Below, one piece after another: positions 9,016 through 20,949 of a stretch of 64,000 nt of DNA; position 1 is the first letter of the stretch; every line of letters begins with the position of its first letter. The stretch is from Candidatus Shapirobacteria bacterium (GTDB taxonomy: Bacteria; Patescibacteriota; Microgenomatia; UBA12405; BS750m-G30): NCBI GenBank assembly GCA_043817235.1, contig JBDRHA010000007.1, positions 73,212 to 137,211 on the forward strand. Reading direction: 5' to 3'. Made by a program: the position numbers and the translations under genes. The notes beneath the pieces were generated by a model. It saw only the letters and a program-made list of their open reading frames with translations, made no database searches and was not told the DNA's origin.

Positions 9016-9887
9016 TGAAAGCAACTACTAAAGTTTGGCAATATTTGCGCCGCAGCCCCCACCAAAGCTTAGCGGCTACAATGGTTATGTTCTCAAATTT
9101 TTTTCTTATTTCAGCCGTAGTTTTTGTGCTTTTTGGCTTAAGTTCAGTTTTGCGATTTTTAGAAACGAGGCCTGAGGTGACGGCCTTTCTGAAGGATGAG
9201 GTTAGCACTGCTCAGCGGGATGCTTTGGTTCAAAAGCTTGAGGCAGAAGAGGGAATTAAGGAGGTGCGCTATGTTAGCAAAGAAGAAGCCTTAAAAATTT
9301 ATCAGCAGGATTTTTCGGATAATCCTTTACTTTTAGAAATGGTAACTGCCGAAGTTTTGCCGGCTTCTTTAGAAATTTCTGCTCAAAGCCCGGAAGTTCT
9401 TAAAAATGTTGTTTCTGAGCTTACTTCTCAGGCCGATTTATTTGAAGAAGTGGTTTTTCAGCAGGAAGTAGTAGATTCGCTTTTAAAATGGACGCAAACC
9501 GCGGAGAAAATTGGCGGTGGATTAATAGTTTTTCTTTCTATGGTCTCCTTGGTGGTAATCTGGGTAATTATTAGCATGAAAATTACTTTGCGAAAAAAAG
9601 AAATTTCCATTTTAAACTTACTGGGAGCAGAAGGGAGCTATATTCGTAATCCCTTTTTACTGGAAGGAATTTTTTACGGAGTAGTAGGGGCGATTTTAGG
9701 TTGGAGTATTGTGGTGACTATTTCTTTTTTAATTCGGCCCAAGTTAGTAGATTATTTTCAACAAATACCGTTTTGGCCCAGCTCTTTTCTTCCGTTTCTT
9801 TTAATTTTGGGTGCAGAAATGCTTTTTGGGGCAATTATCGGCTTGCTGGCCAGCTTCATGGCCGTTAAAAAGCAGCTGCACAAATGA
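9015..9887 (+). CDS. ftsX: Cell-division permease-like protein FtsX
   Basis: The periplasmic loop follows TM1 and four TM segments are present, directly downstream of ftsE. Confidence 0.85.
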   Translation: MKATTKVWQYLRRSPHQSLAATMVMFSNFFLISAVVFVLFGLSSVLRFLETRPEVTAFLKDEVSTAQRDALVQKLEAEEGIKEVRYVSKEEALKIYQQDFSDNPLLLEMVTAEVLPASLEISAQSPEVLKNVVSELTSQADLFEEVVFQQEVVDSLLKWTQTAEKIGGGLIVFLSMVSLVVIWVIISMKITLRKKEISILNLLGAEGSYIRNPFLLEGIFYGVVGAILGWSIVVTISFLIRPKLVDYFQQIPFWPSSFLPFLLILGAEMLFGAIIGLLASFMAVKKQLHK

Positions 9888-11083
9888 GATTCTCTAAAAA
9901 AATTATTCTTTTTTTGATCCTTGCTTCAGTTTTGTTTTCCTGGCCTTTTGGCATCCAGGGTGAGGATTCAGACGAAAAAACGACCTTGCTCGAAAACCAA
10001 ATTCAAGAATACACCCAAAAGTTAAACGAGCTGGGAAAACAAAAAAGTACATTAAGCAATGAAATTGCTATTATGGATTCCCAAATCCAGCTTACGGCTC
10101 TAAAAATTCAGCAGACCCAGGGATCTATTAATTTATTAGAAAAGCAAATTGGGGAGTTGGGCGAAAAAATCAGTGAACTAAACATCTCTCTAGATAATCT
10201 ATCTTTAGTTTTCTTGCAAAGAGTATCGGAAAGTTATAAGTTTCAGTCAACCTCTCCGTTTTCTCTGTTTCTCTCTTCTTCCAGCTTTGCTGATTTTTAT
10301 CGGAAGCTTCAATATCTAAAAGCTTTACAGCTTAATGACCGGGTAGTAATGGTTCAGCTGGAAGAAACTCGTTCAAGTTTTGACCAGCAAAAGAGCCAAA
10401 GGGAAGAAAAGCAAGCGGAGCTGGTTAATTTAAAAACTACTTTGGATAGCCAAAAGAATTCTTTAGAAAGCCAAAAATCTCAAAAAGACTATCTTTTGCA
10501 AATTACCAAAAACGACGAAAAGCGTTATCAACAGTTGCTTTCCTCTGCGCGGGCAGAATATGAAGCGATTCAAGCAGTTTTGGCCGGAGCGGGAAATGAA
10601 ATTGAAGTGGGGAATGTTTCCAAGGGCGAGCAAATAGCGAGTATTATTAGCGGCAATTCGTGCAATTCTTCGGGAGCCCATTTGCACTTTTCGGTTACCC
10701 AGGGAAACAATATTGTTAACCCCTTTAATTATTTGAGCTCAAGCGTGGAGTGGAGAAACTGTTCTGGATATAGTTGCGGAGGAGAAGGAGACTCTTTTAA
10801 CCCCGCAGGCTCTTGGGATTGGCCAATCAATTCGCCTATTACCTTCACCCAAGGTTATGGCAATACCTGGGCGGTTAATCACCAATCTTGGCTTCCTTAT
10901 GACTTTCACAACGGCATTGATATTTTTAATGATAGTTTGGCGGTAAAAGCAGTAGCGGACGGGAAGCTATATCGAGGAAGCTATACCGGAATTGGAGGTT
11001 GTGCCTTGCGCTATGTTCGGCTTATTCACAAAGACTCTGATGTTGAATCTTATTATTTACACATTAACTATACTAAGTTTTAG
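9884..11083 (+). CDS. EnvC-like coiled-coil M23 metallopeptidase (murein hydrolase activator / DD-endopeptidase)
   Basis: A signal peptide and long coiled coil are followed by an M23 domain (..SGAHLHFSV.., ..HNGIDIF..). The gene is adjacent to ftsEX. Confidence 0.8.
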   Translation: MRFSKKIILFLILASVLFSWPFGIQGEDSDEKTTLLENQIQEYTQKLNELGKQKSTLSNEIAIMDSQIQLTALKIQQTQGSINLLEKQIGELGEKISELNISLDNLSLVFLQRVSESYKFQSTSPFSLFLSSSSFADFYRKLQYLKALQLNDRVVMVQLEETRSSFDQQKSQREEKQAELVNLKTTLDSQKNSLESQKSQKDYLLQITKNDEKRYQQLLSSARAEYEAIQAVLAGAGNEIEVGNVSKGEQIASIISGNSCNSSGAHLHFSVTQGNNIVNPFNYLSSSVEWRNCSGYSCGGEGDSFNPAGSWDWPINSPITFTQGYGNTWAVNHQSWLPYDFHNGIDIFNDSLAVKAVADGKLYRGSYTGIGGCALRYVRLIHKDSDVESYYLHINYTKF

Positions 11084-12258: not shown

Positions 12259-13413
12259 ATGCCCAAGGGATGGATTTTTATTTTCTTCGTGATACTGCTG
12301 TTATTTCCGATAAAAAGTTTGGCAGTCTCTGACTTAATTTTATATAAATTTAGTTCTTTTTCTTCCCCCGACTGGATAGAAATCAAAAATATTAGTGAAG
12401 AGAGTATTTCTTTAAATAATTATTCGTTAGAGGATGAGGCTGGAAACAGGAAGACAAATTTTGACTGCTTTTTAAATTCAGGAGGAATTTATGCTGTTGA
12501 TTTTAGTAACTGGTTAAATAACGGCGGAGACGCTATCTATTTAAAAGATGTCGACGGAGTTATTGATTGTGCTGCTTATGGAGATAGCGAGTGTCCAGGC
12601 GAAAATCCATTAGATTTTGAGGAAGACAGTGATAACAAATATGGTATTTGGAATGGGGTAAGTTGGGAAATTACTGATGATTCCGGCAAAGCTGAAAATT
12701 CGGCTTGCGAAGTATTGCAGAATACTCCGGTTGTTGCTCCGACGCAAGTAAATACACCGACAGTATCTTCTAGTGGCAATTTTAAAATCAACGAGGCCAA
12801 GGATAGCGATGGTGGGAATATTTCTAACGCTAAGATATATGTGGATGATGTCTATACCCATCATTACGCTCCGGAAGATTTAGGGTTTTGCGATGGTTGT
12901 GATTGCAACAGTGGCGGAGAAGCTAGTTGCGGCTACGGCCAGCATAATATTAGGTTGACTAAGGACGGATATCAAGATTGGTAGCAAACAGTAACAATTA
13001 ATTCTGGGAATAATTATGAGGTTGATCCGATTTTAACTAAAGAAACCCCCACCTCCACTCCAACGCCTTCGTTTACGCCGACACCAACAATTAAGCTAAT
13101 AACTACCACTCCCAAAGCTTCTTTGACGCCGGCCTTGTCGCCTACTCCGACAGCAGATAGCGACTTAACCCCGACCTTAAAAGATGAAATTTCTTTATCG
13201 GTAACAAAAGAAAGTGGCCAGGCCGGCGAAATTTTGGGCGAAGCAAAGGAAGGAGAGAAGTCTTTCGGCTCAGTGAAAAACAAGAAAATTTTGGCTGGCG
13301 GCTTTATTGGCTTGGGCGGCGGCCTGATAGTGGCTGCTTCTTTGGCCGGAAACAAGAAGAAGCAAGAGAAAGCTGATTTTGATACAATGGAAGATAATGA
13401 AGACGAAAGCTAA
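12259..13413 (+). CDS. Secreted LTD (lamin-tail-domain) surface protein with Cys-rich module, PT-rich linker and C-terminal TM anchor, interrupted by a single in-frame TAG at 12982-12984
   Basis: There is a signal peptide (MPKGWIFIFFVILLLFPIKSLA) and an LTD-like segment (SPDWIEIKNISEESISL...NNGGDAIYLKDVDGVIDCAAYG). The same frame is open from 12985 to 13413 and encodes a PT linker followed by ILAGGFIGLGGGLIVAASLAGNKKKQEK. The track splits this into 12217..12984 and 13123..13413. Confidence 0.5.
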
Positions 13414-13801
13414 AAGAGCACTTCGCTTTTTAGGGCCAATCTTGTGGATGGCTTTTATTTTTTATCTTTCCTCGCGGCAAAGAATTGCCGTAAGCTCGAA
13501 CTACTGGCTGAGCTTTTTTATTTTCAAAACTTTGCACATAATAGAATATGGGATCCTTTTTTTCTTTTGGTATTCGGCCCTTTACGATCGAAAGGATAGA
13601 TTGCGATTAGCGATTATTTTTTCTTTTCTTTATGCAGTATTTGACGAACTGCACCAAAAATTTGTTCCTACTCGGGAAGGAAAAGTGCGGGATGTTTTTA
13701 TTGATTTATTAGGGATAATTATTTTTTGGCAGGTATTTTTAAATAGGTTGGAAAAAACAATAATTAAAATACCTATTCTTAAAAATATTCTCCCCTCCTG
13801 A
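13379..13801 (+). CDS. VanZ-like family membrane protein
   Basis: A VanZ signature is present (..AVFDELHQKFVPTREGKVRDVFIDLLG..) with four TM segments. Confidence 0.7.
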   Translation: MIQWKIMKTKAKRALRFLGPILWMAFIFYLSSRQRIAVSSNYWLSFFIFKTLHIIEYGILFFFWYSALYDRKDRLRLAIIFSFLYAVFDELHQKFVPTREGKVRDVFIDLLGIIIFWQVFLNRLEKTIIKIPILKNILPS

Positions 13802-13925
13802 GTCTATTTGAGGTCTTAATATCCAGTTGACAAAGCACTGAATAGTTTTTAGGATATAGGTTAGAAGAATTAGCACTTAAGATAAAGACAAATAGTTTAT
13901 GAAGTCGGATATTTTATTTATTATC

Positions 13926-13958
13926 GCCGTCCAGCATTAATGCTTGGGCGGTTTTTTT
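13926..13958 (+). terminator. Rho-independent terminator-like hairpin plus T-run
   Basis: CGCCGTCCAGCAT-TAA-TGCTTGGGCGG is followed by TTTTTTT, sitting downstream of the VanZ-like gene and upstream of the SD GGAGGTG. Confidence 0.5.
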
Positions 13959-13976
13959 ATGGAAGGAGGTGAAAAA

Positions 13977-14618
13977 ATGAAAAGAATCTTAACAAGTTTA
14001 TTTGTAATTGGGGTTGTGGCGGGTGTAATTACTAGTGCAACCAGTGCCTATTTTGCCGACGAGGGTGAAATTCAGGGTGTAACTTTTTCTACAGGCAATG
14101 CTGATTTGCAAATGACTCAGGTGTATATGCACAATTGGTATGCAGACAATGCATCTGCTGCGGATTTAGATATCCATCTTCCGGATGATCTTTACCCGGG
14201 CTATGAGGGAAGCTGGGGCAGCCCTGATGGGGCGATTTATTTGGGTAATTTTAGCGGCTCGCCGATTGATTTAACGGTGAGCGCTAGTATTACGAACTAC
14301 GCTGAAGATGTGGCTGGATTGGGCGATACGATTAAATTAGCCATGGCTTGGGGTGGAAATTGTGATAATCTGGGAGCGGGCACGGGCTTTCATGCTCTGT
14401 CTTGGTGGCAGTCTCACTCGGAAGATCTTTTTACTTATATTTCCGGCTCGGCCGACCCTGCTACCTGCGGCTTTATCCCCAATGAGCATTCTGGTGGTTA
14501 TGGAGGGTACGCAAGAGCCTTAAAGTTTTTCTTGAAAGTTCCGAACAATGCTGGGGATGAAATAGCCAATGGCGTGGCTTCGTTTAACATCCATTTTGAC
14601 GCCGAGCAAATGCATTAA
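13977..14618 (+). CDS. SipW-cognate-class secreted protein (TasA/camelysin-like)
   Basis: The SD GGAGGTG is followed by an ATG at 13977. The signal peptide ends in the SipW-cognate motif TSAYFADE, and the gene lies directly upstream of a SipW-type peptidase. Confidence 0.6.
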   Translation: MKRILTSLFVIGVVAGVITSATSAYFADEGEIQGVTFSTGNADLQMTQVYMHNWYADNASAADLDIHLPDDLYPGYEGSWGSPDGAIYLGNFSGSPIDLTVSASITNYAEDVAGLGDTIKLAMAWGGNCDNLGAGTGFHALSWWQSHSEDLFTYISGSADPATCGFIPNEHSGGYGGYARALKFFLKVPNNAGDEIANGVASFNIHFDAEQMH

Positions 14619-14687
14619 CTCAATAGCTCTTTGGGGATGTTAACTTGATGGGGTTGCCCAAAGCATTTGGGCAACCTAGTCAAGGTG

Positions 14688-17273
14688 ATGATTAAAAAAT
14701 TATCGAAATTGGGTCTTGGTCTAATTTTATTCTTGCTTCTTTTAGTAGCTTTGGCAACCGGATTAAGCGGTACTAAGGAAATTGCGGGCTTTAGGCTTTT
14801 TAGCGTAAAATCCGCTTCTATGTTTCCGGTATTAAAAGCGGGTGACTTAATTATTATTAAAAGAGACAACTTTTACGCTGTGAACGACATTGTTACTTTT
14901 GCCCGGGAGGCTGGCGCAGATAAAAAAGATGGCAAGACTGTGACCCATCGGATTGTTGACAAGTCTAACTTGGGGGAAAAGATTTTTTATATCACCAAAG
15001 GTGATGCCAACGAAACAGCTGATCGTGAGCTGGTGGCTTTTGAAAATATATTGGGCAAAAAGGTGTTTGCTTTCCCCTTAGCCGGCTATCTTATTAGTTA
15101 CACCCAGACCCTGCCGGGTTTGCTTATCTTAATCGTTATTCCCGGAACCGTTATTATTTATTCAGAACTAATCAAAATTAAGACGGAGTTATTTAGCTTG
15201 TTGGACAAAAAGAAGTCTTCTAAAAGTAGAATAATATTTATGGCAGTGATATTGACCGCTTACTTATTAAGACATCTTGGGTCTCCCTCGTTTTCTTATT
15301 ATGCGGATAGTGTTTCTTTGGGCCAGTTTAGCTTTTCTTTAGGAGATTGGACAAGGCCGAAGTCGGAAATTATCTCGGAAGAAACTTTGCTTAACAGTTT
15401 GCAGTTTAATATTGACTACGAAGCTTCCGATAATAATTTAGATTATATAGAGCTTTGGTATTCCTATAATTTTGGCGATTGGCAGCTATTTGCTGTGGAT
15501 ATTCCCGCTTCTTTGGGGGATTTTGATTTTACTTCGCCCGAAGGAGATGGCTTTTATCGGTTTATTACGGTTGCCGTTGACAAATTAGGAAATTGCGAAG
15601 ACAAAGACGATAATAGTGTTGACGATAATCTAGAACTAGAAGATCTTGCTTTGTTTTTGGGCTGGGATCTTTACGAGGTGCAGGTAGACACCCAAGCTCC
15701 TTATACGATTTTATCTTTGGGTGAATTTGGCGACGATGATTGGGGTGAAAACCGCTTTGGGCTAAACGAGCAGACGCTAAGCGGCAATTTTGAAGATACA
15801 TCTGGCTCGGAAAGAAACTGGATTATGGGGGGTGACGGCGACCATCGGGCAATTGACAATCTTGGCTTAGCTGGCCAAGCCGAAGTTTTTGGCGGTGATT
15901 ATTCCGGGCTAATAGGCTGGTTTGACTCTGATCCTGCAGTTGTGGGGACGGATTATCTTTATCAAATAATTACCCTGCCTAATACCCCCGCTACTTTGTC
16001 TTTCTGGTTCAGGGTTCTTAGTGAAGATACGGTTGATTATGATTCTTTTACGGCCAAAGTTATTGACGAAGCTGACCCGAGCAATGAAGAGGTAATTATC
16101 AGAACCGGTTCTGATGAACTTAGTGGCTGGTCTTTTGATAGTTTTTGGCAGGAAGTTACCTATTCATTAAATAGTTGGTTAGGAAAGACGGTTAAGCTTT
16201 GGTTTGGAGTAGAAAACAAAGATGAGCAGGCAATTCCTCTTAGGACATATGCTTTAATTGATGATCTTCGCGTGACTAATTTAGATAACTGGCTGACTAC
16301 CGGAAAAGAGATTGAGGTAAAAGCGAATGATCTTGGATCGGGAGTAGAGGCAACCTATTGTCGGATTAACGGAGGAAGCTGGGAGGAATGTTTGGGAATT
16401 TTTACTCCCAACGAAGCCGGCATTGGAGACAGCCAAGATTTGAATATTGAGTATTATTCAATTGATTTGGCCGGAAACCTGGAGGCTACCGAAAGCTTAG
16501 AGCTAAAAACCGATAACAGTAAAAGTTATTTTGGCCTGGTTTTAAACCAAATATCACCTCGACCCTCGGGGTCTGATTCAGGAACAAGCGGTTTGCCTTT
16601 AGAGGGGGAGTGGGTCGAGCTGTGGAATAATTCGGATGCGGATATTGATGCTGACGGCTGGGTCTTGCGGGAAAAGAGCGGAGCCTTTTTGCCTATTAAA
16701 GCGCAGAACTCTGATAATAATGGAAATTTATCTGATGGCGGTGAAACCCTAGTGCCGCCAGGCGGCTGGCTGAGAGCCTATCGAAATGGCGACTCGGATT
16801 TTAATTTGAATGATGATGTTGATAAAGTAGAGCTTTGGACCGACTATGAGGGCAGTGGTGGAAGCCTAGTTGATTCTTTTAGCTATGGTGAAGTTTTAAG
16901 CGATGATAAGACTTGGAAAAGAAATCCGGATGGAACCGGAGCCTGGGCTGACCCGGGCGTAGATATTGATTTTACTTCTTTGGGCTCCGGTAAATTTAGG
17001 CTTCAAGTTGGCAGTTTGCCCCAAAAAACAAAGCAGGTAAACTACGAGGTTCTTTACTTTAGCCTAGGGGTAGAAAAGGGTGTTTACGGAGAGGCAAAAG
17101 AGATTAAGGAGCAAAATTTAAAAAAAGAATTAATTTTAGGAACTTGCTCGACTGACGGATGCTTAAATGACTTTATTGACCAAAATCAAATCTTCGTAAA
17201 TTTAGAAATAATTAAAGAGGCGGGAATAGAAGATATTCATATTGAAAGCAGCTTTCTGTTTGTGATTAAATGA
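14688..17273 (+). CDS. SipW-type (S26B, ER/archaeal-type) signal peptidase fused to a large extracellular region containing a lamin-tail domain
   Basis: The N-terminal part has the peptidase motifs SASMFPVLKAGDLIII, KTVTHRIVD and TKGDANETAD. The C-terminal part has an LTD signature (LEGEWVELWNNSDADIDADGWVLRE...VDKVELWTDYEGSGGSLVDSFSY). Which start codon is used (TTG 14667, GTG 14685 or ATG 14688) is uncertain. Confidence 0.7.
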   Translation: MIKKLSKLGLGLILFLLLLVALATGLSGTKEIAGFRLFSVKSASMFPVLKAGDLIIIKRDNFYAVNDIVTFAREAGADKKDGKTVTHRIVDKSNLGEKIFYITKGDANETADRELVAFENILGKKVFAFPLAGYLISYTQTLPGLLILIVIPGTVIIYSELIKIKTELFSLLDKKKSSKSRIIFMAVILTAYLLRHLGSPSFSYYADSVSLGQFSFSLGDWTRPKSEIISEETLLNSLQFNIDYEASDNNLDYIELWYSYNFGDWQLFAVDIPASLGDFDFTSPEGDGFYRFITVAVDKLGNCEDKDDNSVDDNLELEDLALFLGWDLYEVQVDTQAPYTILSLGEFGDDDWGENRFGLNEQTLSGNFEDTSGSERNWIMGGDGDHRAIDNLGLAGQAEVFGGDYSGLIGWFDSDPAVVGTDYLYQIITLPNTPATLSFWFRVLSEDTVDYDSFTAKVIDEADPSNEEVIIRTGSDELSGWSFDSFWQEVTYSLNSWLGKTVKLWFGVENKDEQAIPLRTYALIDDLRVTNLDNWLTTGKEIEVKANDLGSGVEATYCRINGGSWEECLGIFTPNEAGIGDSQDLNIEYYSIDLAGNLEATESLELKTDNSKSYFGLVLNQISPRPSGSDSGTSGLPLEGEWVELWNNSDADIDADGWVLREKSGAFLPIKAQNSDNNGNLSDGGETLVPPGGWLRAYRNGDSDFNLNDDVDKVELWTDYEGSGGSLVDSFSYGEVLSDDKTWKRNPDGTGAWADPGVDIDFTSLGSGKFRLQVGSLPQKTKQVNYEVLYFSLGVEKGVYGEAKEIKEQNLKKELILGTCSTDGCLNDFIDQNQIFVNLEIIKEAGIEDIHIESSFLFVIK

Positions 17274-17277
17274 AGGT

Positions 17278-18180
17278 ATGCTAAAAAGATTGAAGAGTTT
17301 GTTCATCCCTCAGGAAGGTAATAATTTTCGAGCTAAGTTGCTTCATCCTTCAACCTTGGCTTTCCTGGTCGGTATTTTTCTTTTTAATCAAACGGTTTTG
17401 AATCTAGTTGCTATAGGCAGTCCGGGAGTTTTGGGTTATGTTTCCAAAATATTACCCGAGCAGGTGGTAGTTTTAACGAACGAGAAAAGGCAAGAGGCGG
17501 GATTAGAGTCTTTACAAATCAATGACTCGCTTAATGAATCTGCCCAGCGCAAGGCGGCGGATATGTTTGCTTTTGATTATTGGGCTCACGAATCTCCTTC
17601 CGGTCGGTCCCCTTGGGATTTTATTGCCGAGGTTGGGTATGCAGAAAATCAAGGTGGTTATATTAAACTGGGGGAAAATTTAGCCAAAGACTTTGCGGCT
17701 TCCGAAGGGGCGGTGGATGCTTGGATGAAATCTACTACTCATCGGGAAAATATCATGGATCCTGCTTTTCAGGAGATAGGCGTGGCAGTGGTGGAAGGCA
17801 CGCTTCAAGGATATAAGACTACTTTAGTGGTTCAGCATTTTGGCAAAGCCAAAGACGCAAAAGAGAATTCGGGTATTGCTGTTCAGGCCCAAGAAATTAA
17901 ACCTCAGGGAGAAAGTCTGTTCTCTGAGCAGAAAGCTTTGGTAATGGGTCAAGATCTTTCAGGGGTTGAGCAGGAAGCGCCGGTAATTAACCCTTTAATG
18001 GTTACCAAAACACTTAGCGCCTTGCTTTTTGGTTTAATTATTTTGGCAGTAATTGTGGATGCGGTTTTCTTACTGAAGAAGAAAATTCATCGTCTTTCCG
18101 GGCGCAATTTGGCTCACGCCCTATTTTTAGCCTTAGTCTTTTTGCTTATAATTTTAAGCCAGCAGGGGGTGATTAATTAA
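17278..18180 (+). CDS. CAP/SCP/PR-1 domain protein, membrane-anchored at both ends
   Basis: A CAP-domain motif is present (..DYWAHESPSGRSPWDF.. HRENIMDPAFQEIGVAVV) with N- and C-terminal TM helices. Confidence 0.7.
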   Translation: MLKRLKSLFIPQEGNNFRAKLLHPSTLAFLVGIFLFNQTVLNLVAIGSPGVLGYVSKILPEQVVVLTNEKRQEAGLESLQINDSLNESAQRKAADMFAFDYWAHESPSGRSPWDFIAEVGYAENQGGYIKLGENLAKDFAASEGAVDAWMKSTTHRENIMDPAFQEIGVAVVEGTLQGYKTTLVVQHFGKAKDAKENSGIAVQAQEIKPQGESLFSEQKALVMGQDLSGVEQEAPVINPLMVTKTLSALLFGLIILAVIVDAVFLLKKKIHRLSGRNLAHALFLALVFLLIILSQQGVIN

Positions 18181-18181
18181 G

Positions 18182-18448
18182 ATGTTTTTAAAAGAAGTTA
18201 AAAGGCATCCGGTCGATTTTGGAATTTTGGTTTTCGGGCTGATAATTTTAGGAATTGCTTTTGTTCGTTTTCAATTTTTACCCTTAACTCAAGAAAAAGT
18301 TTTGATTTTAGCTTCTTCTTTTTACTTTCTTTGGGGAATAACTCATCACCTGCTTCGAGGCGACTTTCATTTTAAATTGCTAATCGAATATCTTTTGATT
18401 TCTCTTTTTGCTTTATCCGCCGGTCTGCTAGTCTTAAGCCAGGTTTAA
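18182..18448 (+). CDS. Hypothetical small membrane protein
   Basis: An 88-aa ORF with 2-3 TM helices. Confidence 0.4.
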   Translation: MFLKEVKRHPVDFGILVFGLIILGIAFVRFQFLPLTQEKVLILASSFYFLWGITHHLLRGDFHFKLLIEYLLISLFALSAGLLVLSQV

Positions 18449-20133: not shown

Positions 20134-20949
20134 TTATTTTAATGGACTTTTAATATTTTTAAGCTTTGGATTTGTCACCTGTGTATACCGTTGAGTTGTT
20201 CTGATATTTTGGTGCCCGAGAAGCTCCTGAACGTAGCGGACATCTACACCGTTTTCCAGTAAATGAGTAGCAAAAGAGTGCCTAAGCGAATGAAAAGTTG
20301 CGTTCTTTTTTATGTTTGAAGCGTGAAGCGATTTTTCAAAAATTTTCTGAGCTGTTCTTGTGGTTAGTTTTCCGCCTCGCTCGCTGGCAAAAACAAGATC
20401 ATTTTTTGATTTTCCCGCAATCAGATTCCTAAGGTGGTTTGTTAATTTTTTTGGTAATACGCTGATGCGGTCTTTTTGTCCTTTTGCGTGCTTGATATGA
20501 AGAATCATTTCTCCTAAATCCAAATCTTGGATTTTCAAAGCAATAACTTCGCTTACTCGCAAACCTGCTCCATACGCAAGCGATAAAAGAAGCTTATGTT
20601 TTGTATTTGTCAGAGTTTGCAAAATCTTTTCAATCTCGACTCGCGATAGCACCACCGGCAAACTTTTGGGCTTTTTTGCTGAGCGTATTTTAATTTTCTG
20701 TGGATTTTTCACTATATTGCGGTAGTAATATTTGATTGCGTTTAACAACAAATTTCGAGTTTGGAGGGAGACTTTTTTTTGTTCACAATGATGTAAGAAA
20801 TTTCTGATGTTTTCCTGATCAAGCTCTTCAAAATTATCTTTCTTGAAGGTGAAATATTCCTGCAAACTATAAAGATAGCTTTTTATGGTCTTTGGACTGT
20901 AATTGAGAATTTTTAACTCCCGTTTGGTTTTTTCAAGTTGCTCTTGCAT
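20134..20949 (-). CDS. XerC/XerD-like tyrosine site-specific recombinase (short, 271 aa)
   Basis: The catalytic R..H-R-Y region is present (GLRVSEVIALK, HSLRHSFATHLLENGVDVRYVQELLGH, TTQRYTQV). Confidence 0.85.
   Translation of the reverse strand: MQEQLEKTKRELKILNYSPKTIKSYLYSLQEYFTFKKDNFEELDQENIRNFLHHCEQKKVSLQTRNLLLNAIKYYYRNIVKNPQKIKIRSAKKPKSLPVVLSRVEIEKILQTLTNTKHKLLLSLAYGAGLRVSEVIALKIQDLDLGEMILHIKHAKGQKDRISVLPKKLTNHLRNLIAGKSKNDLVFASERGGKLTTRTAQKIFEKSLHASNIKKNATFHSLRHSFATHLLENGVDVRYVQELLGHQNIRTTQRYTQVTNPKLKNIKSPLK

Follow-up and report, generated by a model that had tools for sequence, protein, structure and literature searches.

A SipW-type signal peptidase joined in frame to a large predicted substrate at a putative TasA-like fiber locus of Candidatus Shapirobacteria

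A SipW-type peptidase in frame with a multidomain ectodomain

TasA/SipW fibers are a model for biofilm matrix assembly. Here we analyzed a 64,000-nucleotide (nt) stretch of DNA from a Candidatus Shapirobacteria bacterium (assembly GCA_043817235.1, contig JBDRHA010000007.1, positions 73,212 to 137,211 of the forward strand), hereafter called the window. A first-pass annotation made from the letters alone had described a putative surface-fiber module in it, and its five open reading frames (ORFs) were all recovered from the ORF list on the + strand at 12259-18180. They encode an upstream surface protein with a lamin tail domain (LTD)-like domain, a VanZ-family protein, a TasA-like secreted protein of 213 amino acids (aa), a SipW-type signal peptidase continuing into a large ectodomain, and a CAP-domain protein. 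Related loci and homologous proteins are referred to below by L and P numbers, respectively.

The fourth ORF, our main subject (14688..17273, + strand, 861 aa), encodes in one polypeptide a SipW peptidase, an internal signal peptide and a multidomain ectodomain. Its ATG at 14688 is the start of the deposited protein P0001; the longest ORF starts from TTG 14667 and has 868 aa, and residue numbers of this protein are counted from that TTG. The deposited name is just "signal peptidase I", so the substrate half is hidden. The peptidase domain (archaeal/endoplasmic reticulum (ER)-type, family S26B) occupies 14688..15173 and matches TIGR02228 at 93.1 bits (cutoff 51.85) over aa 19-169. Two membrane helices flank the catalytic domain, at aa 11-36 and 148-169 according to hydropathy and at aa 2-33 and 149-178 in the structural model. 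The first-pass annotation had made its interpretation depend on the catalytic serine and histidine, and both align with human SEC11C (7p2q) in the paired motifs SASMFP/SGSMEP and THRIV/VHRVI, followed by GDANETADR/GDNNEVDDR; the catalytic codons are at 14817-14819 (Ser51), 14946-14948 (His94) and 15021-15023 (Asp119). The three residues are invariant in an alignment of 35 extended SipW relatives, with the serine in SxSMxP, histidine rather than lysine as general base and the aspartate in a GDxN…D box. The score against the Bacillus SipW equivalog model NF046067 is 104.6 bits (cutoff 190), so that the peptidase counts as related to Bacillus SipW but falls short of being its equivalog. At the level of sequence, the fused ORF is thus shown to start with a complete, catalytically intact archaeal/ER-type signal peptidase carrying two membrane helices.

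The peptidase is followed by a junction (15204..15296) that aligns with the N-termini of three stand-alone homologues, P0004, P0005 and P0006, as a degenerate SipW-type signal peptide. It consists of the Lys-rich stretch DKKKSSKSR, a 13-residue hydrophobic segment IIFMAVILTAYLL and then RHLGSPSFS; in the homologue alignment the hydrophobic segment is continued by GSPSFSYYADSVSLGQFSFSLGDWTRP, and cleavage is predicted at S210|Y211. The stand-alone homologues (667-675 aa) have no peptidase. Their N-terminus runs from Met through basic residues and a hydrophobic segment to TNAYFSD…GNSFSTGDWTRP, the consensus at the transition from signal peptide to mature protein being TNAYFSD…GNSFSxGDWTRP; such a start is a SipW-type signal peptide. 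The window ORF thus couples SipW to a protein that is secreted as a SipW substrate in its relatives. Internal translation start at ATG 15240 was considered and rejected, since this codon is followed by no positively charged n-region and preceded by no Shine-Dalgarno sequence.

The ectodomain (about 658 aa, 15297..17270) is a string of beta-sandwich domains in the AlphaFold2 (AF2) model, which fits an adhesin or an anchor. The model distinguishes an Ig-like domain (aa 229-320) and a jelly-roll domain resembling carbohydrate-binding modules (CBM-like, aa 336-545), followed by an OmpL47-type barrel (aa 547-613, 44.3 bits against a hidden Markov model (HMM) with a cutoff of 40), the LTD (16533..16889, aa 623-741, PF00932 at 35.9 bits against a gathering score of 34.3) and a C-terminal beta domain of about 105 aa (16959..17270, aa 765-868) with the motif Y.LTY…G..G…LGTCS..G.C. 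The claim that a SipW-type peptidase is fused in one ORF to an LTD-bearing region was therefore borne out. The large extracellular region that the first-pass annotation had noticed is, however, no generic appendage of the peptidase: it is a SipW substrate, and the signal peptide of that substrate forms the joint. The predicted local distance difference test (pLDDT) score of the model is 63.5 overall and mostly 60-88 per 10-residue block inside domains. Foldseek searches with the model returned generic strings of Ig, FnIII, macroglobulin and CBM domains, uninformative on function, and a PDB sequence search with the whole fused ORF gave no match. The C-terminal "LGTCS" domain has no Pfam or NCBIfam match and is kept in P0002-P0007; it is also the sole ectodomain in at least 10 other SipW fusions (e.g. 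P0032, P0113 and P0155). No relationship between this domain and the TasA-like family was detected by hhalign (probability 0.2%).

Split and fused forms in related genomes

The same substrate is encoded separately in sister genomes. At loci L001, L084 and L085 a separate gene for a 168-185-aa protein lies directly upstream of the substrate gene and overlaps it by 8-38 nt. The upstream gene of L001 is sipW (TIGR02228 99.6 bits), and those of L084 and L085 are presumed to be sipW from their position and size. The stand-alone substrate of L001 also matches TIGR04088, the model of SipW-cognate signal regions, at 16.7 bits (E 0.006). A further split layout is found at L003, where the ectodomain (P0007, 8001-10406) lies behind a TasA-like N-terminal segment and comes after a stand-alone sipW. 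The L003 locus as a whole holds two sipW paralogues and extra TasA-like genes.

Fused forms similar to that of the window are P0002 (GCA_016783425.1), P0003 and the partial P0008, which come from independent samples and share 32-55% identity (BLASTP). Three independently assembled fused homologues argue that the fusion is no assembly accident. At the level of this family, it is shown that the peptidase is fused in frame to a SipW substrate that sister genomes encode separately, and that the fusion joint is the substrate's own signal peptide, in which a Lys-rich n-region is followed by a short h-region and then by a small-x-small|YYxD site. In a neighbor-joining tree of the ectodomains (no bootstrap support) the split forms are basal and fused forms appear at two places, one being the window protein with P0002 and the other P0003, which suggests that fusion arose at least twice in the family.

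Where the two genes are split, the end of sipW overlaps the beginning of the substrate gene in A-rich Lys-codon tracts (L001, 7940-8020; L085, 760-850), e.g. gaaaaagaaaaaaaagaaATGaaaaaaattag. Indels of 1 nt or slippage in such an A-rich overlap would interconvert split and fused forms.

Extended SipW proteins and SipW-LTD pairs in other lineages

The first-pass annotation had called the arrangement unusual, and it proved to be less so. An exhaustive HMMER search with the peptidase domain returned 14,951 proteins at E≤1e-3, and among the 149 best SipW cluster representatives (the query's own excluded) 34, or about 23%, are extended, i.e. at least 280 aa long with the peptidase N-terminal. We then asked how many of 35 extended SipWs of at least 250 aa carry, after the peptidase, a K/R-rich stretch, a hydrophobic segment and an AxA[YF][FY]xD-like motif. 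A loose version of this rule was satisfied by 25/35 proteins compared with 26/700 shuffled tails, and a strict version by 13/35 compared with 2/700. Similarly, an HMM built from the signal region of the small 213-aa protein matches about 16 extended SipWs at positions of about 190-250, the best E-value among reversed sequences being 1.8.

Partners of the extended SipWs were counted in alignment A3 (n = 35, window protein included). LTD proteins are fused in 7/35, and other partners include TasA-like domains and the conserved C-terminal "LGTCS" domain. In addition, P0099, a metagenomic cluster representative of 346 aa, comprises SipW at aa 4-182 and a TapA-family protein at aa 179-346 (TIGR04087 91.5 bits, cutoff 80). 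A scan of GTDB genomes, with patterns (alignment A4) that mostly picked up LTD proteins, revealed about 25 loci in which a gene for an LTD protein comes directly after a stand-alone sipW and in most cases overlaps it; most of the LTD proteins inspected there start with a SipW-type signal. Judged from record titles, these loci belong to Paceibacterota, Parcubacteria, Zambryski-, Taylor-, Nealson-, Moranii- and Sungiibacteria and others; adjacency of SipW and LTD is common across the candidate phyla radiation (CPR). Among nine sipW-adjacent LTD proteins searched against Pfam, the LTD was found in all (9/9). The N-terminal part of PF12389 was matched at E<0.01 in 4/9, and in two of these four the match reaches the cutoff.

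The small TasA-like protein

The gene preceding the fused ORF (13977..14618, + strand) is headed by a GGAGG ribosome-binding site and encodes a TasA-like, camelysin-superfamily putative fiber subunit of 213 aa. Its putative SipW-type signal peptide (13977..14048) has a predicted cleavage site at A24|Y25 (…ATSA|YFADE), which we place by analogy with TasA …TWA|AFND; the TasA N-terminus and its P2' Phe have been described (PMC10151520, PMC10269814). The motif TSAYFADE is present at aa 22-29, at the end of the signal peptide where it had first been noticed, and A21, T22, A24 and D28 are invariant across 18 homologues. The best-conserved part of the protein across 18 family members is GVTFSTGNADL, which comes after the signal motif. 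On the cognate_SipW model TIGR04088 the protein scores 18.9 bits against a cutoff of 19 (E 1.2e-3), and two syntenic proteins of L002 score 31.8 and 28.3 bits. No other SipW-type signal was found in the 64-kb window.

The TasA/camelysin-like fold on which the first-pass annotation had staked its reading was found as well, in that the model is a TasA-like jelly-roll/beta-sandwich and its top structural matches are the TasA-superfamily fiber subunits TasA fiber, CanX, AbpA and TLP; chaperone-usher pilins are also among the targets. A PDB sequence search with the 213-aa protein gave only a chance-level cohesin match (E 0.04). Independent, transitive support comes from the protein in the same syntenic slot of L084 (L084:875-1471), which is a full-length member of PF12389 (51.2 bits, positions 17-194 of 196) and matches the window protein by BLASTP at E 4e-13 over residues 1-128. 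Homology and fold together show the 213-aa protein to be a subunit of the TasA superfamily, preceded by a putative SipW-type signal peptide. The monomer model has pLDDT <50 at residues 20-39, a stretch that runs from the last part of the signal peptide into the mature N-terminus, and such disorder looks as a donor strand lacking its partner would.

Neighboring genes and features

The upstream surface protein was said to be an LTD protein with a C-terminal membrane anchor. Its N-terminal part (12259..12984, + strand) comprises an ordinary Sec-type signal peptide, an LTD-like domain and a Cys-rich beta domain; the Pfam LTD match (31.2 bits, E 3e-7) does not reach the gathering score of 34.3, and the signal peptide contains no AYFxD motif. 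The anchor is present only if an in-frame TAG at 12982..12984 is read through, in which case the continued frame (12985..13413, + strand) supplies the end of the beta domain, a Pro/Thr-rich linker, a C-terminal membrane anchor (by hydropathy at aa 344-364 once both parts are joined) and a charged tail. Orthologues of L001, L002 and L086 have the same layout beyond this position and carry a sense codon in place of the TAG, for N in L086, S in L001 and I in L002; in the window the 142 codons downstream of the TAG are intact. The TAG could have arisen by a recent nonsense mutation or as an error in the consensus, or it could be read through. Stop-codon reassignment was rejected, as TAG is otherwise an ordinary stop in the window, where it closes 6/42 long ORFs, and translation table 11 gives normal readings of the long ORFs.

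The VanZ-family small membrane protein (13379..13801, + strand; NF037970 75.6 bits, cutoff 20; PF04892 54 bits, cutoff 30.1) is separated from the gene of the 213-aa protein by a 175-nt spacer. VanZ lies directly upstream of one or more TasA-like genes in 5/6 related loci (L001, L002, L003, L084 and L086); the contig of the sixth, L085, begins too near sipW to show its position. In L003, VanZ is followed by a 378-aa TIGR04088-positive protein and a second sipW. On the other side of the fused ORF lies a CAP/YkwD-domain membrane protein (17278..18180, + strand; PF00188 70.3 bits, cutoff 21.1; TIGR02909 99.6 bits) with one N-terminal and two C-terminal hydrophobic segments by hydropathy, a downstream neighbor kept by synteny. 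It is followed by a small three-helix membrane protein of 88 aa (18182..18448, + strand, from the ORF list) with a weak DUF5656 match under the cutoff. Counterparts of 86-87 aa in L001, L003 and L086 make it a conserved downstream neighbor that may or may not be part of the module. What ties VanZ, the CAP protein and the anchored LTD protein to the module is conserved synteny only, and that synteny reaches housekeeping genes too, namely ftsEX, an M23 peptidase gene, a PAP2-family gene and trmD. Overall, the interpretation put forward in the first-pass annotation is supported, with refinements concerning the nature of the substrate, the frequency of the arrangement, the upstream stop and these synteny-only links.

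Several further features were observed around the module. Right after ftsE-ftsX the window encodes an EnvC-like protein (9884-11083) that combines a coiled coil with an M23 peptidase domain; the ftsE-ftsX/M23 block lies upstream of the fiber module in L001 and L002 as well, other related contigs being too short or different, and part of the synteny around the module is hence housekeeping. An ORF on the - strand adjoining trmD (20134-20949) resembles an XerC/D-like tyrosine recombinase. The same gene, annotated PF00589, occupies the same place in the closest relative L086; the ORF therefore probably belongs to the resident genes and does not point to a mobile element. Within the spacer, a GC-rich hairpin at 13926-13959 (CGCCGUCCAGCA-UUAA-UGCUUGGGCGG, then U7) lies 17 nt upstream of the ATG of the TasA-like gene; an 81-nt segment containing it folds at -20.5 kcal/mol (z -2.15). 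Upstream of the hairpin, TTGACA-17-TAGGAT at 13827-13855 is the only good promoter-like site in the spacer. The hairpin could be a terminator of the upstream unit or a leader/attenuator. In a scan for promoters and terminators, counts were no higher than in shuffles.

Proposed mechanism and alternative explanations

The reading that we favor, and hold to be reasonably probable, is that of a TasA/SipW-type fiber module in which the peptidase cuts the ectodomain free and the ectodomain acts as a TapA-like initiator or tip adhesin. Hydropathy suggests a topology that is coherent with this reading: the N-terminus of the fused protein would lie inside and the catalytic domain outside, with helix 2 returning to the inside. 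The Lys-rich linker would stay inside and the h-region would exit, bringing the cleavage site to the outer face beside the active site. The peptidase, acting in cis or from a neighboring molecule, would then cut at about S210|Y211 and release the 658-aa ectodomain. The new ectodomain N-terminus, YYADSVSLGQFSFSLGDW, would resemble the subunit N-terminus, YFADEGEIQGVTFSTGNA, which would correspond to the donor strand of TasA; in the aligned motifs, the released YYADSVSLGQFSFSLG would mimic the subunit's YFADEGEIQGVTFSTG. By analogy with TasA, the subunit may polymerise by N-terminal donor-strand exchange and, by analogy with TapA, the N-terminal strand of the ectodomain may be donated to the first subunit. 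The ectodomain would thus sit at one end of the fiber, where, as an adhesin or anchor, it would expose its LTD and its CBM-like domain, and the fusion would ensure 1:1 co-insertion of the peptidase with a low-copy initiator. We infer that the ectodomain works like TapA, not that it is TapA. For the window copy, where the internal motif is degenerate, cleavage is likewise a prediction.

A number of results weigh against this mechanism. The internal signal of the window is the most degenerate of the family (SPSFS|YYAD compared with GTNA|YFSD), and has no TIGR04088 match at the junction. Its score of -2.9 with the signal HMM of the family is no better than those of shuffles, which go up to 4.4; P0002, P0003, P0005, P0006 and P0008 reach 7.6-18.2. 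The model is of low confidence across the junction, with pLDDT <50 at aa 137-228. Using an HMM of the mature N-terminus of the subunit, which proved too short to discriminate, the ectodomains could not be separated from shuffles except for P0008, and the two mature N-termini seem to be alike in their shared motif alone. The window ectodomain has no match to TapA (TIGR04087). As for the small protein, Pfam and NCBIfam scans gave no direct PF12389 or NF046066 match, and its Foldseek matches, although of the same kinds of target, are weak (E about 1e-2).

The placement of the internal signal within the shuffle range makes a tethered, uncleaved adhesin a serious rival for the window genome. According to this explanation, which we consider unlikely yet worth weighing with care, the internal signal of the window protein and P0002 has decayed to a third membrane segment and the fusion is permanent; the helices of the peptidase would anchor an LTD adhesin while the enzyme still processes the small TasA-like subunit. 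The degenerate junction, with Ser at P1 and Phe at P2, speaks for it together with the signal scores above, and P0002, the closest fused relative, has the same altered FSYYxD form. On the other hand, a hydrophobic segment of 13 residues followed by Arg-His is short for a stable transmembrane helix, the small residues at -3/-1 and the Y-Y-x-D…G..FS.GDW motif are kept, the fused P0003 and P0008 hold canonical TNAYFSD sites, and partners elsewhere include TapA- and TasA-like proteins, which need release to function. Another explanation would keep the processing by SipW and dispense with polymerization, the products being secreted or cell-surface proteins such as coat or camelysin-like envelope proteins, and the TasA-like fold merely a shared beta-sandwich scaffold. 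The modest Foldseek E-values would agree with this, but the top structural matches are specifically fiber subunits of the TasA superfamily, and the N-terminal region that matches the donor strand is both the most conserved part of the family and unstructured in the monomer model; we regard such non-polymerizing proteins as distinctly improbable. Least credible of all, to the point that we hardly entertain it, is that the single ORF results from a sequencing or assembly frameshift in an A-rich sipW/substrate overlap. Errors of 1 nt would come easily in Lys-codon tracts like those of the split relatives, but the window junction is without a long homopolymer, and against an artefact stand the three other fused homologues from independent samples and the roughly 34 extended SipWs in other lineages.

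Beyond the window, it is conceivable, though we would sooner doubt than defend it, that self-processing SipW-substrate polyproteins are widespread in CPR and that LTD-tipped, TasA-like donor-strand fibers are an unrecognized attachment apparatus of these ultra-small episymbionts, distinct from type IV pili and with the "LGTCS" domain as a new module. In our literature search no paper paired SipW with "lamin tail domain" and none described a natural signal-peptidase-substrate fusion. What is new here is a natural, recurrent fusion of a type I signal peptidase to its own substrate via the substrate's signal peptide, the occurrence of LTD-bearing proteins as usual SipW partners across CPR lineages, and a conserved, unannotated C-terminal domain. 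If self-cleaving, the fused protein would offer a compact system for studying how SipW recognizes substrates with aromatic P1'/P2' residues, and how fiber initiation couples to the peptidase. The fibers, should they exist, would be candidates for attaching to the host in organisms that are not culturable alone.

Comparison with known systems

The closest parallel is with the tapA-sipW-tasA operon of B. subtilis, where TasA residues 28-38 form the donor strand and TapA, whose N-terminus AFHDI compares with AFNDI of TasA, supplies the first strand at the filament start only (PMC9674648, PMC10151520). The overlap of tapA and sipW there hints at coupling (PMC10151520). As in that operon, a dedicated Ser/His signal peptidase adjoins proteins with an A|[AY]FxD signal, the major subunit is TasA-like, and a second, larger substrate has a mature N-terminus that would imitate that of the subunit. 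Unlike in B. subtilis, the peptidase and the accessory substrate form one polypeptide, the order is sipW and then substrate, and the host belongs to CPR. The accessory protein also differs from TapA, since its 658 aa are arranged as a row of domains, namely Ig-like, CBM-like, OmpL47-type, LTD and a novel C-terminal one.

Similarly, in sipW-bsaA-bsaB-bsaC of C. perfringens and sipW-calY1-calY2 of B. cereus, sipW comes first, ahead of the genes for TasA-like matrix or pilus subunits and for a large secreted accessory protein, but these systems have neither a fusion nor an LTD, and BsaA subunits are locked by isopeptide bonds. In the model proposed for C. perfringens, subunits assemble at the membrane ahead of SipW cleavage (PMC11580942). 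Archaeal fibers of the TasA superfamily, namely the AbpA/AbpB bundling pili of Pyrobaculum and the CanA/CanX cannulae of Pyrodictium, use a general signal peptidase, with no dedicated or fused enzyme reported; for Pyrobaculum AbpB a role similar to that of TapA has been proposed, with distal adhesin-like domains (PMC9245690). TasA homologues in Patescibacteria were already known from a Pfam survey only (PMC9245690). Finally, the stand-alone sipW and LTD genes of other CPR bacteria share with the Shapirobacteria family the enzyme family, the AYFxD signal and an LTD in the substrate. In those loci the genes are separate and a subset of the LTD proteins carry their own TasA-like N-terminal region, whereas the Shapirobacteria proteins, except P0007, have an N-terminal strand-like segment only.

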